A stretch of DNA of 64,000 nt from Dictyostelium discoideum (taxonomy: Eukaryota): positions 3,456,001-3,520,000 of the forward strand of contig CM000152.2 in the NCBI GenBank assembly GCA_000004695.1, read 5' to 3'. Shown here piece after piece: positions 18,841 to 24,038 of the stretch; within the stretch, counting starts at the first letter, position 1; every line of letters begins with the position of its first letter. The position numbers and the translations under genes are program-made. A model generated the notes under the pieces. The model made no database searches and was not told the DNA's origin. It saw only the letters and a program-made list of their open reading frames with translations.

Positions 18841-20205
18841 TTTTTTTTTTTTTTTTTTTTTTTCTCTGAATATAAATACTATTATTATCCACCTACATGA
18901 CTAATTTGTTTTTTTTAATTAATTTTTATTACTATTTATTATTTTAGAAATTCTATTTTCAAAATTGATTAATAGAGTTTTTTTTTTAAAAAAAAAAAAA
19001 AATCTGATCAAACCTTATATTTCTTTTATATATATTGAAAAAAATGTTTGATTTATTATTTATTAAAAAAAAAAAAGAAAAAAAAAAAAATGTGTGGGTG
19101 ATAGAAAAAAAAAAAAAATAAAAAAAAAAAAAATTAAAAAAAAAATCAATTAATTTTTTTTAAGTCAACTCAAAAATTAAAAAAAAAAAAACTACATAAT
19201 ATTTCAAAGAAAAAGAAATAGATTATATCTATTAAATTGAAGTTAAACTCAAAAAAATAAATTTGAGAGGTCTTATTTTATTATTTTTATTTTTTAATTT
19301 TAGTTTTGATTGATATTTTAATATTTAAAATTAAATAATTTTTTTTTGGATAATTATTTTTGTTTTCTTGTTTCTTTGTTGGATACTTTCATTAATAAAT
19401 TTATATAAGATTTATTAAATATGAAATTAATTTTGAAAAAAAACACAATTGTTAATTGTTAATTGTGTCATTAGTTTAGTTTTTAAGAGTTTTGGAGTTC
19501 TTGAGGTTTCAACATTTTCAATTGTTTCAATATAGCCAAAGTTGTATTTTCTTGTTATAGAAATAAAATAAATCTTTATATGGAATTTAATTAGAAATTG
19601 AAAATTCCAAATGAAGATTTTTAATTTATTTATTTCATTTTTATTTATTTATTTTATAATGATTAACACCATTATTATTATTATTATAATTTTTATTATT
19701 ATTATTATTTTCTATAAAATAGATATGGGGATATACAAAGAATAAAGATGGACATTATTGTTTTTTATTTTTATTTAATTTAAAATACCAATTGGTGTTA
19801 ATTATATTAGATAAATAAATAATTTTCTTTCTAAATATGGTGGTAAAAAAACAAAAAAAAAAAAAAATAAAAATAAAAATAAAAATAAAAAATTTACACA
19901 TATGTCTCCAAAAAAAACAAAAAAATTTTTTATAAAAAAATCAGGACTTAATTTTATAACAAAAACTATCCCACTGAAAAAATATAAGTATCCCACTTAA
20001 TTTATATATTTTTTTTTAATTTTTTTTGATTTTTTTTTTTTTTGTAAAATTAAGTCTTCCTTAATAAAATTTATTTTTAGTTTTCCAATTGTTCCATTTT
20101 AATTCTGCAGCATTACATTTTTGAATTTCGATTTAATCTTTGATTTTAATGAGTTTGGAAATAATTAATAAGTATACTTATTTTTTTTTTTTTTTTTTTT
20201 TTTTT
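18841..20205. repeat. Copy 1 of a tandemly duplicated AT-rich block (segments Y-Z-W; no embedded gene)
   Basis: aatactattatccacctacatgac (about 18878) matches 20351. ggataattatttttgttttc...ttcattaataaatttat (about 19349) matches 20688. tatcccacttaa appears twice (about 19965 and 19990) and again at 20988/21009. attacatttttgaatttcgatttaatctttgattttaatgagtttggaaataat (about 20111) matches 21160-21225. Identity is roughly 80-90% with indels. Confidence 0.7.
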
Positions 20206-20206
20206 A

Positions 20207-21245
20207 ATGAGGAAAAATGGTTGAAAATGTTAAAAAATAATAATAATAATAACAACTTTAAAAAAATTAATTTTAAATGATGCAATGCACTAATGTGTTA
20301 ATGAAATTATACCAACCATTTATTTTTTTTTTTTTTTTTTTTTTTTTTTTTGAACATTAATACTATTATCCACCTACATGACCAATTTATTTTTTTTAAT
20401 TTTTTTTATTACTATTATTATTTTATAAATTCTATTTTAGAAATCAATTAATAGAAAAAGAAAAAACAAAAAAATAAAAAAAAATAAAAAAAAAAATAAA
20501 AAAAAAAATAAAAAAAAAAATAAAAAAATAAAAATTCCATAATAATTTTAAGTTCCATTTTTTTTTTTTTTTTTTTATTTTAAGTTAACTTAAAATTATT
20601 ATGAAGTTTTTTATTTTTTTCGATTATATATACACAAAATTTTTATTTAATTGATATTTAAAATTAGAAAATAAAATTATTTTTTTAGATAATTATTTCT
20701 GTTTTCTTTGTTGGTTACCTTCATTAATAAATTTATTAAATTTATTAAATATGAAATTAATTTTTTTTATTTTTTATTTTTTATTTTTTTAAAGATATAT
20801 ATTTATTATTATAATAATTATTATTATTATTATTATTATTATTATTATTATTATTATTATTATTATTATTATTATTATTATTATTATTATTATTATTATT
20901 ATTATTATTATTATTATTATTATTATTATTATTATTATTTTATTTTATTTAAAGTATCAATATTTTTAATTTTCTTAATATAAAAATATCCCACTTAAAA
21001 TTTAAGTGTCCCACTTAATTTTATAAAATAAAGTAAAAAAAAAATTAAAAAAAAAATTATAATAAATTTTAAGTCTTCCAATAAAATCTATTTTTAATTT
21101 TGGTGTTTAAAAGGAATTATAAACATTAAAATGAGTTCAATTTGTTACATTTTAATTCCAGTATTACATTTTTGATTTTTTACTTGATCTATCCAAGTTT
21201 TAATGAGTTTGAAAATAATAATTAATTAATAAGAAATCCAGCATT
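20207..21245. repeat. Copy 2 of the duplicated block (segments X-Y-Z-W), directly followed by the minus-strand paralogue ORFs 21222-23301; the X segment recurs at 23370-23610
   Basis: aatgaggaaaaatggttgaaaatg...aaaaaaattaattttaaatgatgcaatgcactaatgtg at 20207-20300 recurs as tatgaggatggaatggttgaaaaaaat...attaattttaaatgatgcaatgcactaatgtg at 23370-23580. This gives a repeat unit of about 3.1 kb, [X][Y Z W][gene], with the gene part absent from copy 1. Confidence 0.7.
20815..20940. repeat. (ATT)n microsatellite, about 42 units
   Basis: Direct observation. Confidence 0.95.
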
Positions 21246-23301
21246 GTATAAAAAATTAATTAATTTTGAATTTCCACTTTTTACAACTTTACGACAAATA
21301 TTAATATCATTATATTGGAATAAATTATTTAAAGCATGATAACTTGTAAATAAAATTGAATTACCAATTAAAATATTTGCATTAATTTTAAATCCAATTG
21401 AATTAATTAAGTCTAGTAATTGATTAAGTATTACATTTGTTAATCTTGTTTTACCATATGTGTAGATATATTTTAAAATTAATTCAATTACTGATATGTT
21501 TCTATCAATAAATGATTGTTCTTCATCTTCAAAATAAAATGTTTGTTGATTATCATTAAATGAACCATCACATTTAAATAATTGAATAATTGTTTCTAAA
21601 AATTCAATTATTTTAATTAAATCTTCATTTGTACCAGTATCGAATTTCTTTAATAATTCAATAGAAACCTTTGGATTGAATTGACACTTTGTTGAAATGA
21701 ATGGGTGAAATGAACTTGAACATGCAATTATAAATAAATTAATATCAACATTAAGATAAGCATGTTCAATTAAAATATTCAATATTTTACCATCACTACC
21801 AAATCTTTCTAAACTTTTATAATCATTAAATTCAATTGAATATTTAATTGATTTTTCAATCCAATAATATTTATCAACCAATAATAATTTCTTGTAATCA
21901 ATTATAATTCTTTTAAAAAATATTGATTTTATAATTTTAATAATTTTATTTTTAATTCCTTCAATTTTAATTAAAGTTATTGATTTTTCATTTTCTTTTA
22001 TATTAATATTATTAAATTCATTTAAAAATTTAAAATAATTTTTATACCCATATAATGAAAAAATTGATTTAATTTCTTTATTTATAATTTTAAAAATTTC
22101 AATACCTTCGAAATTTAATTTTTCAATTTCAATTAAATAAAAAATTATACCAAATAAATTAATTAATTGTTTTTCCCAATTTTCATTTTTATTTCCATTA
22201 TTATTATAATTATTATTTTGATAAATTAAATTTGAAATTAATTTTAAAAATGTCTCTTTATTTTTTAAAGTGAATAAAACATTTTTTTTAATTTTAATAA
22301 ATAATCTTAAAAATAAATTAAATTTAATACCAAATAAATTTGAAATTTTAATTGTAAATTTATTTGGTGTTGGGATTTTATTTTTAAGAAATACTTTTAA
22401 TTAATTTATTATTTGATGTTGATGAAAGTGCAAAATTAATTGACTTTTCATTTAATTTTAAAAATGTAAAATTAAATTTTTTATTTTTATTTTTATTATT
22501 TTTATTATTTTTATTATGATTTTTAAAAAATTTTGAAATTGTTTCAAATGTACCATATTTTAAAATTAAATCAATTAATGATTGAAATGATATTTTATTA
22601 TTAATTGTTAATAGTTCATCATTTATTAAATCATTTATTAATAATTGTGAAATTAATGAATTATTTATGAATTTTAAATTATTATAAATTATATTTATAT
22701 GTTTATTATTATTATAAAATAAAATTAACATTTTTTGATTATTTTCATTTATTGGTTGAATAATTTGAAAGAATTTAATGAAATAATATAAAATATTATT
22801 ATTATTATTATTATTAAAATTATTAAGATTATTTGGATTATAATTATCTTAATCCAAATCAAATTTAAAATTAAATGATGGATTATTTGATTTTATAATT
22901 TTATCAAATAGTAATTGATATTGATTATTGTTTACCATCCATTCAAATTTAATATCATCATATTTTAAATTATTTTTTATTGTTGATATTTCTAATATTT
23001 TATTATTATCAATCATATATTTAATTTTTTTTTCAAAAATATAATTAAAATTTATTTTTCTAATATAACAATTACCCATTACCAATTTATATAATATATA
23101 CATATCTCTAATTTGATGATTCTTATTTTTATTATTATTATCAATTAATATTAATTCATTATTTATTTGAATACTATGATTAAATGAATATTTAATGTTT
23201 GTTGTGGATGTATTATAAATTGACAAATTATTCTTATTAATAAAATTTAGAACCAAATCATTCGATAAAAGATAATGATTGGTTATTTTTGAAATTACCA
23301 T
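21222..23301 (-). pseudogene. Fragmented paralogue of the 8216-10870 hypothetical-protein gene; likely a pseudogene or a gene needing non-obvious introns
   Basis: Three collinear minus ORFs (22849..23301, 22384..22731, 21222..21881) are each ended by stops. The first shares a clear motif run with the N-terminus of the 8216-10870 protein (ILYKLVMGNCYIRKINFNYIFEKKIKYMI...IKFEWMVNNNQYQLLFDKI vs LIIYRNKYLRIKIFHEIKISNKKLKYI...FELLLEWKDLDLSTFIEF). Total coding length (about 480 aa) is far shorter than the intact paralogue. Confidence 0.45.
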
Positions 23302-24038
23302 TTAAAATTTTTTTTTTTTTTTTTTTTTTTTTTTTTTTTTTAATTTCTATATTTTCTTTTTTTTTATTATTATGAGGATGGAATGGTTGAAAAAAATAAA
23401 TTTTATATTAAAATTTATAAAAAAATTTTATTTTTATTAACAATGACACATATGTAAAAAAAAAAAAAAAATTGTTTTATTATTATTATTATAAAAAAAA
23501 AAAATTAAAAAAAAAAAAAAAATAATAATAATAATTTCAAAAAAATTAATTTTAAATGATGCAATGCACTAATGTGGTAATGGAATTATACGAATCATTT
23601 TTTAACACTCTATTCAATGACTGTTTTTTTTTTAATATATCACTTTCAAGTTGTAAAAAAAAAAACCCCTAAAAAAATAAAAAAAAAATAAAAAAATAAT
23701 CTCTTTTTATATTTTTTGTGTGTGCTCAGTGTTAGACTGAGACAAATATTGCATCAATTCTAAAAATAATATTCATTTTTTGTTTTTTTTTTGAATCAAT
23801 ATTGACCATAAAAAAAAAAATTTTTTTTTTAATATTATTAATTTTAGAAAAAAAAAAAAAAAAACAGGAGATATTATTTAAATTTATTAAAAAAAAAATT
23901 TTGAACGCAACTATAAATAACAATTAAAAATACCCTTTTTTTTTTTTATTAAAAAAATTATAACAATATTTTTTTTTTAAGTTTACTTTTTTTTTTTTTT
24001 TTTTTTTTTAATTTTTACATTTTTTTTTTTTTTTTTTT

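Follow-up and report, generated by a model that had tools for sequence, protein, structure and literature searches.

Several described systems resemble a repeated, AT-rich block with a broken reading frame in Dictyostelium discoideum. In classical tandem duplication followed by non-functionalisation, a gene and its flanks lie in adjacent head-to-tail copies, and one copy is degraded by deletions. Strain-specific or unitary orphan pseudogenes are disabled in one strain and intact in sister isolates. The Dictyostelium transposable elements include TRE5/TRE3, DGLT-A, DIRS-1, Skipper, DDT, Tdd, and thug, and tRNA genes are the usual target of the TRE and DGLT-A elements. Genes for non-coding RNA (ncRNA), such as Class I RNAs and small nuclear RNAs (snRNAs), are driven by DUSE, a Dictyostelium ncRNA promoter element with the sequence [AT]CCCA[AT]AA located about 60 nt upstream of the transcription start site (TSS) (PMC3188802, PMC7919456). 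Here, we analyzed a window of 64,000 nt from D. discoideum AX4 (GCA_000004695.1, contig CM000152.2, positions 3,456,001 to 3,520,000), numbered from its first letter. The subject is a block at 18.8–23.7 kb of this window that holds repeated non-coding segments and a disrupted minus-strand gene.

The block is very probably an old two-copy head-to-tail tandem duplication on AX4 chromosome 3, which is decaying neutrally and is not a mobile element. The duplicated segment would measure about 3.3 kb or more and would comprise a single-exon orphan gene with its 5' flank (island E) and its 3' intergenic sequence (islands D, C, B, and A).

Locus and compared genomes

The sequence of the window has 12–32% G+C, with long homopolymer runs and (ATT)n tracts. 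The protein encoded at 21.2–22.7 kb is residue-identical to DDB_G0280515 of D. discoideum AX4, chromosome 3. This is a social-amoeba, eukaryotic locus, and therefore bacterial-type promoter and terminator logic is inapplicable.

The syntenic locus was compared in three further assemblies. L001 is the locus in GCA_054859355.1 and L003 that in GCA_054859385.1; both assemblies are labelled D. discoideum and are diverged. L004 is the locus in GCA_054883475.1, an independent assembly of the AX4 lineage that is 99.5–99.6% identical, and L002 is the chromosome-2 locus of the same assembly. L001, L003, and L004 share their flanks, with the ABC transporter, VKOR, and CBS genes on one side and a 950-aa gene and a ComC-like gene on the other.

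A generic repeat finder and a permissive +1/-1 BLAST were swamped by A/T low complexity, under which everything aligns at about 57%. The self-BLAST used here applied +1/-3 scoring and required matched G/C positions. With these settings, 18–25 kb was compared with itself and with the remaining ~57 kb of the window.

Two adjacent copies of one unit

Strict self-BLAST of 18–25 kb gave five strong colinear non-coding matches between copy 1 and copy 2 (Table 1), and no comparable match was detected in the other ~57 kb of the window. The matches were A (18839-18976 with 20323-20455, 88%, 138 nt), B (19371-19434 with 20703-20764, 94% over 64 nt), C (19979-20003 with 20997-21021, 92%), D (20089-20124 with 21142-21175, 89%), and E (20232-20321 with 23511-23600, 90% over 90 nt). 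Blocks A, B, and E were also recovered when copy 1 was globally aligned to copy 2 without its gene, and the same procedure yielded 0 blocks in six control intergenic stretches. The 16-mer TATCCACCTACATGAC occurs twice in the window, once per copy, against an expectation of 0.02, and exact ATCCCACTTAA is confined to the two copies within the window. Thus, the colinear matches, the empty controls, and the words unique to the copies indicate that the repeat is real and far beyond chance.

The unit reads E-gene-D-C-B-A on the minus strand, which is the sense of the gene. From the layout of the two copies, E is therefore the 5' flank of the gene, D is its 3' flank or 3' untranslated region (3'UTR), and C, B, and A are downstream intergenic sequence. 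The copies are adjacent, colinear, and in the same orientation, as in a tandem duplication. In L001, paralogous homology reaches the equivalent of window ~23603-23628, at the outer end of copy 2. The outer edge of A1 is a T46 run (18818-18863), and a short T-run also follows E2.

These results agree with the initial annotation in several respects. It had described named non-coding strings that repeat in the same order in two adjacent blocks, and matches A to D follow exactly this order. It had also stated that copy 1 lacks the gene, which holds except for the last three codons and the stop. A third recurrence of the leading segment, proposed at 23.37–23.60 kb, was not found: the segment there is E, which pairs with 20.20–20.32 kb between D1 and A2. 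Because it matches E1 and not A, there are two copies and no partial third.

Table 1. Coordinates of the duplicated unit, the gene, and associated features in the AX4 window
Feature	Position	Strand	Description
Copy 1 of tandem unit	18864..20322	-	E1-[gene deleted]-D1-C1-B1-A1; 1.46 kb; colinear matches to copy 2
Copy 2 of tandem unit	20323..23630	-	E2-gene-D2-C2-B2-A2; about 3.3 kb
Island A1	18864..18976	.	Contains TATCCACCTACATGAC; partner A2 20352-20455
Island B1	19348..19434	.	Partner B2 20686-20764
Island C1	19966..20003	.	Doubled ATCCCACT[G/T]AA motif; partner C2 20986-21021
Island D1	20052..20172	-	Former 3' flank/3'UTR and last three codons of deleted gene; partner D2 21071-21234
Island E1	20206..20322	-	Former 5' flank of deleted gene; partner E2 23372-23628, upstream of surviving gene
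T25 run at copy 1 deletion scar	20181..20205	.	Corresponds to T34 run 23308-23341 just upstream of surviving ATG
T-run at head-to-tail junction E1/A2	20319..20351	.	No unique DNA between copies
(ATT)~49 microsatellite in copy 2	20803..20949	.	At place of ~500 nt of complex sequence kept in copy 1 (19435-19960)
Single-exon orphan gene, disabled in AX4	21222..23301	-	ATG 23301-23299; native stop 21224-21222; ~693 codons if repaired; partly annotated as DDB_G0280515
Lesion 1	22849..22851	-	3-nt insertion making in-frame TAA: GAT TAT AAT in relatives, GAT TAA GAT AAT in AX4
Lesion 2	22395..22398	-	+1 frameshift: A-run of 4 in AX4, 3 in relatives
Terminal "mini-exon" of DDB_G0280515	19483..19550	-	22 codons, inside copy 1, after 1,742-nt predicted intron (21292-19551)

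A constrained gene disabled in AX4

The minus-strand frame runs from 23301 to 22387 with a single in-frame TAA, and a one-base shift near 22398 leads into a 392-codon frame that continues to the native stop. At the syntenic locus, L001 and L003 carry uninterrupted orthologous open reading frames (ORFs) of 697 and 699 codons, respectively. In a base-level alignment of AX4 with these relatives, all five remaining indels were multiples of three. Between AX4 and L001, the synonymous divergence (dS) was 0.085 and the nonsynonymous divergence (dN) was 0.032, giving a dN/dS of 0.375 (29 synonymous versus 53 nonsynonymous differences, Fisher p = 8×10⁻⁵). The ORF has therefore evolved under constraint, as a true coding sequence does. 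The two lesions were also present in the independent assembly GCA_054883475.1 (L004), and thus they are not reference errors.

From this comparison, the gene in AX4 is very likely a pseudogene, namely the disabled orthologue of an intact constrained gene. The disrupted minus-strand ORFs that the initial annotation placed at 21222-23301 after copy 2 were confirmed. Its description of them as broken by stops applies in a mild form, since the disruption consists of one in-frame TAA and one 1-nt frameshift in one gene.

A 40-nt imperfect palindrome (85% self-complementary) was observed at window 22329-22368, inside the coding sequence (CDS) of the orphan gene and just downstream of the frameshift in the gene sense. 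AlphaFold2 was run on the intact orthologue without an alignment and gave a mean predicted local distance difference test (pLDDT) score of 36, which was unusable.

History of the duplication and loss of the copy 1 gene

Copy 1 of L001 keeps ~400 nt of 5' CDS, including the ATG, and ~110 nt of 3' CDS, with an internal deletion between them. These remnants lie at 13090-13406 and 13538-13645 of L001 and are 90–96% identical to copy 2. The 5' and 3' stubs indicate that copy 1 once carried the gene. In AX4 copy 1, E1 leads directly to D1 across the T25 run, and the CDS is gone up to its last three codons and stop. The endpoints of this deletion differ from those of L001 and L003, with GTATA on one side of the junction, CTTATTAA on the other, and 2-nt microhomology. 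The deletion in L003 is larger, with one end in the poly-A that follows E1 and the other in the poly-A that precedes C1, so that the stubs and D1 are removed; A2 is also missing in L003. Both copies thus descend from a gene-containing unit, as seen from the L001 stubs and the last three codons in AX4.

The age of the duplication was examined at parsimony-informative sites of islands A, C, D, and E in AX4 and L001. Twenty-nine sites grouped the copies by orthology (AX4-1 with L001-1 and AX4-2 with L001-2), none grouped them by genome, and one was discordant. In island E, orthologues were 95–97% identical and paralogues ~82%. These site counts and identities indicate that the duplication is older than the split between AX4 and the isolates and that no gene-conversion homogenisation occurred. 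The proposal that the block is a repeat array undergoing loss of its coding part was therefore well founded, since the copy 1 gene is deleted, with stubs left in L001, and copy 2 in AX4 carries the nonsense change and the frameshift while the relatives are intact.

Proposed course of events and points against it

As the internal junction and both outer edges fall within T-runs, the duplication may have arisen at long poly(dA·dT) tracts, either by replication slippage or by unequal exchange between them. The redundant gene of copy 1 was then eroded by deletions that differ between AX4, L001, and L003, and the gene of copy 2 stayed under purifying selection and is intact in two isolates. In the AX4/laboratory lineage, copy 2 recently gained the nonsense-creating 3-nt insertion and the +1 frameshift. 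With the gene of copy 1 deleted and that of copy 2 carrying these lesions, the AX4 lineage is left without any intact copy. The islands would represent sequence-complex duplicated intergenic DNA that can still be aligned, whereas the surrounding homopolymers and microsatellites would have been turned over by slippage.

Several points weigh against this history of tandem duplication and neutral decay. The poly-T-mediated origin is only suggested, by the boundary positions. In island A, the four copies resemble one another to about the same degree (84–90%) and just 2 sites are informative, so constraint or local conversion may have acted there. Copies of islands A–E may exist elsewhere, as the DNA search covered less than the complete D. 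discoideum genome. The AX4 locus could make a truncated or spliced product. Furthermore, a ~230-nt fragment of the orphan gene is present on chromosome 2, and therefore some orphan-gene sequence was moved or copied.

Relatives of the gene

A protein search of 5.8 billion sequences returned just this locus and its orthologue. When the intact orthologue served as the query in an exhaustive HMMER search of 1.84 billion representatives, three proteins were returned: the AX4 model, the 150-aa 5' ORF that is a separate gene in the ACTFIT assembly, and DDB_G0277617 on chromosome 2. The source collection of this library includes proteins from at least four D. discoideum assemblies. No Pfam domain was detected in the repaired orphan protein or in the 884-aa protein encoded elsewhere in the window (E ≤ 1). 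By the evidence of these searches, the gene is a single-copy, species-restricted orphan and not a family member.

The initial annotation had regarded the fragments as paralogues of the intact 884-aa gene (ORF 8219-10870) and the locus as part of a lineage-specific gene family. This proposed paralogy was rejected, with E = 6.6 in tblastn, E of at least 1.7 in composition-corrected BLASTP, and a profile-profile (hhalign) probability of 1.9%. The apparent similarity was seen solely with composition correction and SEG masking off, and it therefore reflects shared N/I/K-rich composition. In the databases, the two proteins have no relatives in common. Those of the 884-aa ORF are its orthologue ACTFIR_002975 and DDB_G0292934, and DDB_G0292934 gave no match to the orphan protein (E = 0.6). 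Composition alone can thus mimic paralogy between N/I/K-rich Dictyostelium proteins.

The chromosome-2 fragment covers codons ~316-378 of the orphan gene and lies at L002 10219-10446, within the equivalent of AX4 DDB_G0277617. Its halves show 96% and 84% nucleotide identity, and the host is an unrelated, more G+C-rich short gene model. Pfam was uninformative on the chimeric chromosome-2 protein. This fragment could be repair filler DNA or a chimeric pseudogene.

Annotation of DDB_G0280515

The AX4 model DDB_G0280515 has its start codon at an internal Met (22731), treats 22394-22256 as a 139-nt intron that covers the frameshift, and has an exon ending at 21293, before the 1,742-nt intron that leads to the mini-exon. 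The ACTFIT annotation shares the 139-nt intron, ends at the native stop, and contains no mini-exon, and its 5' 150 codons form a separate gene. In the literature, no paper mentioning DDB_G0280515 was found. DDB_G0280515 is very likely an annotation artefact, in which a gene finder worked around a pseudogene and its lesions are hidden. The main value of the present result is one of housekeeping: the present model DDB_G0280515 should give way to the annotation of a single-exon gene of about 697 codons that is disabled.

Alternative explanations

One alternative is that the AX4 locus still holds a working gene, with real introns and a functional DDB_G0280515 (455 aa), a functional upstream 150-aa ORF, or both. 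Both predicted introns have GT...AG ends, the 139-nt intron over the frameshift was placed by two independent annotations, and the C-terminal 392 codons remain open. However, in both relatives the 139-nt "intron" corresponds to coding sequence that is in frame and free of stops, and the residues that it encodes (P0001 283-329) are invariant in the three-sequence alignment. Its length is 3n+1, exactly what a predictor needs to absorb a +1 frameshift. The 1,742-nt intron, reportedly about ten times as long as a typical intron of D. discoideum, is not reproduced in the ACTFIT annotation, and the models drop the conserved N-terminal ~190 codons. A working gene in AX4 is therefore quite unlikely. 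In the initial annotation, two observations were named that would speak against its reading of the block, namely segments confined to this locus and ORFs that splice into an intact full-length protein. One half of this was seen: no more copies of the segments were present in the sequences searched, which are a part of the genome, whereas the ORFs need no splicing in the relatives and cannot yield the full-length protein in AX4. According to that reading, the block would be what is left of an uncharacterised element, mobile or self-duplicating, in which the ORF would be cargo or enzyme and islands A–E termini or promoters. The islands are indeed distinctive and colinear, and the ~230-nt piece of the ORF lies at an unlinked locus, inside DDB_G0277617. 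Nevertheless, the block edges showed no terminal inverted repeats, no long terminal repeats, and no target-site duplications; when the two ends of the block were strictly compared in either orientation, just the unit homologies A1 with A2 and E1 with E2 were obtained. The ORF has no Pfam domain, and hence no transposase, reverse-transcriptase, or integrase domain. The HMMER matches are limited to this locus and the short chromosome-2 fragment, and no other dispersed copy was detected in the 64-kb window or L002. The array occupies the identical syntenic position in three lineages, its copies group by orthology, the tRNA scan found no tRNA gene nearby, and islands A2 and D1 are dispensable in L003. 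With edges that lack repeats, no transposon domains, and fixed synteny, the proposed mobile or segmentally duplicating element with conserved segments as its termini is highly unlikely.

The islands themselves could be more than neutral remains, with some of them selected as cis-regulatory elements or as a small ncRNA gene. As one example, an ncRNA promoter of DUSE-like type might lie in the doubled ATCCCACTTAA and direct transcription from TTAAGTCTTCC, ~60 nt downstream of it in island D (+ strand), and the 958-aa gene next to the block might have an upstream element in island A. The ATCCCACT[G/T]AA motif resembles DUSE and is kept 2–3 times in all six copies of three genomes. In each AX4 copy, the second motif is followed after ~62-63 nt by TTAAGTCTTCC. 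Three of the four copies of A share an identical 16-mer, and A1 is located about 450–570 nt upstream of the start of the 958-aa gene. On the other side, a strict DUSE scan of the whole window ([AT]CCCA[ACT]AA, consensus from PMC3188802) gave 14 matches, none of them within 18.8–23.7 kb, where the local motif is TCCCACTT. The Class I core CTTACAG is absent from the window, the block has no suitably placed TGTG box, Rfam gave no match at the gathering threshold or at E ≤ 10, and island D shows no consensus RNA fold (folding term 0). A DUSE-driven or Class I RNA for islands C and D was thus rejected on strict motif, core motif, and fold. In L001 copy 1, a 15-nt insertion splits TTAAGTC from TTCC in the putative start, and L003 has lost D1 and A2 altogether. 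Between paralogues, the islands are 85–94% identical, which does not exceed the value for the dead gene stubs (90–96%). Since their identity is no better than that of dead stubs and some of them are deleted in L003, the islands are best read as decaying neutrally, and the initial suggestion that the conserved segments serve as promoters was not sustained. Selection on some islands is accordingly improbable. Similarly improbable is a combined reading, in which the recent loss of the only functional copy of this fast-evolving orphan gene from the NC4/AX4 laboratory lineage would go together with one or more islands that are real cis-regulatory elements or an undescribed DUSE-variant promoter, duplicated with the gene; the candidates would then be the doubled ATCCCACTTAA of all six copies and the TATCCACCTACATGAC word. 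If true, this would make the locus a natural knockout of an orphan gene and the source of a new promoter motif.

Neighbourhood and further observations

Two one-mismatch copies of ATCCCACTTAA were observed on the + strand at window 12013-12023 and 12067-12077, 54 nt apart, within a short ORF (11773-12141). The region that holds this pair is syntenic to where the relatives have their ComC-like gene, and the pair is probably due to chance.

The 958-aa ORF (window 15532-18408, minus strand) combines a cysteine-rich N-terminal region with long poly-Q/CAA repeats and an internal duplication of ~50 residues (DGETKGGDNLKTGVEALDKTPGEDEINQSMG...), and its repeat region aligns in many registers between isolates. 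The ABC-transporter region of L001 has matches at two places of the window, 44794-48068 and 27106-32899, with identities of 95% at one and 77–91% at the other, which indicates a pair of paralogous ABC-transporter genes ~15 kb apart. In the newer assembly, ~520 nt of resolved sequence (L004 3958-4478) take the place of the 100-N assembly gap at window 24836-24935.

Compared with window 11.6–32.9 kb, GCA_054859355.1 and GCA_054859385.1 were just 91–96% identical to AX4 over the syntenic 20 kb. The divergence at this level, like the dS of the gene, is far above the usual within-species diversity. The two assemblies may represent a cryptic or mislabelled sister lineage of D. discoideum. A literature search found no paper on either of them.

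Comparison with known systems

The locus is a clean, small case of tandem-duplicate decay in an extremely AT-rich genome, with three deletion states in three genomes. Breakpoints fall in homopolymer runs, and sequence-complex islands alone remain recognisable. No new mobile element, RNA, or mechanism was revealed by it.

The Dictyostelium transposable elements named at the outset share with the block a repeated, AT-rich character and a piece of the ORF at a second locus. Unlike them, the block has no terminal repeats, target-site duplications, transposon domains, or tRNA association, a distinction drawn from features and not from consensus sequences. Furthermore, its position is fixed and syntenic, and its copy number is two.

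The block resembles DUSE-driven genes, such as those of Class I RNAs and snRNAs, in its CCC-containing, A/T-flanked ATCCCACTTAA and in a conserved word ~60 nt downstream. Here, the local motif fails the strict DUSE at positions 7–8, and the block lacks the 11-nt Class I motif (CCTTACAG core), a terminal stem, and a covariance-model match. The putative transcript region is also interrupted or deleted in the relatives.

The resemblance to a unitary or strain-specific orphan pseudogene is closer. In both cases, the gene has no domains and no homologues beyond close relatives, is intact and selected in sister isolates, and carries one nonsense change and one frameshift in the reference strain. The present gene differs in that it is annotated as an intron-containing coding gene (DDB_G0280515) in AX4 and as two genes in another assembly.

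The locus likewise resembles the non-functionalisation of classical tandem duplicates. A gene with its flanks is present in adjacent head-to-tail copies, one of them degraded by deletion, the copies are more diverged than the orthologues, and the junctions lie in low-complexity tracts. In contrast to the classical case, the decay of copy 1 can be traced here through the deletion states of the three genomes, and the survivor is also disabled in AX4, which amounts to complete loss of the gene in that lineage.

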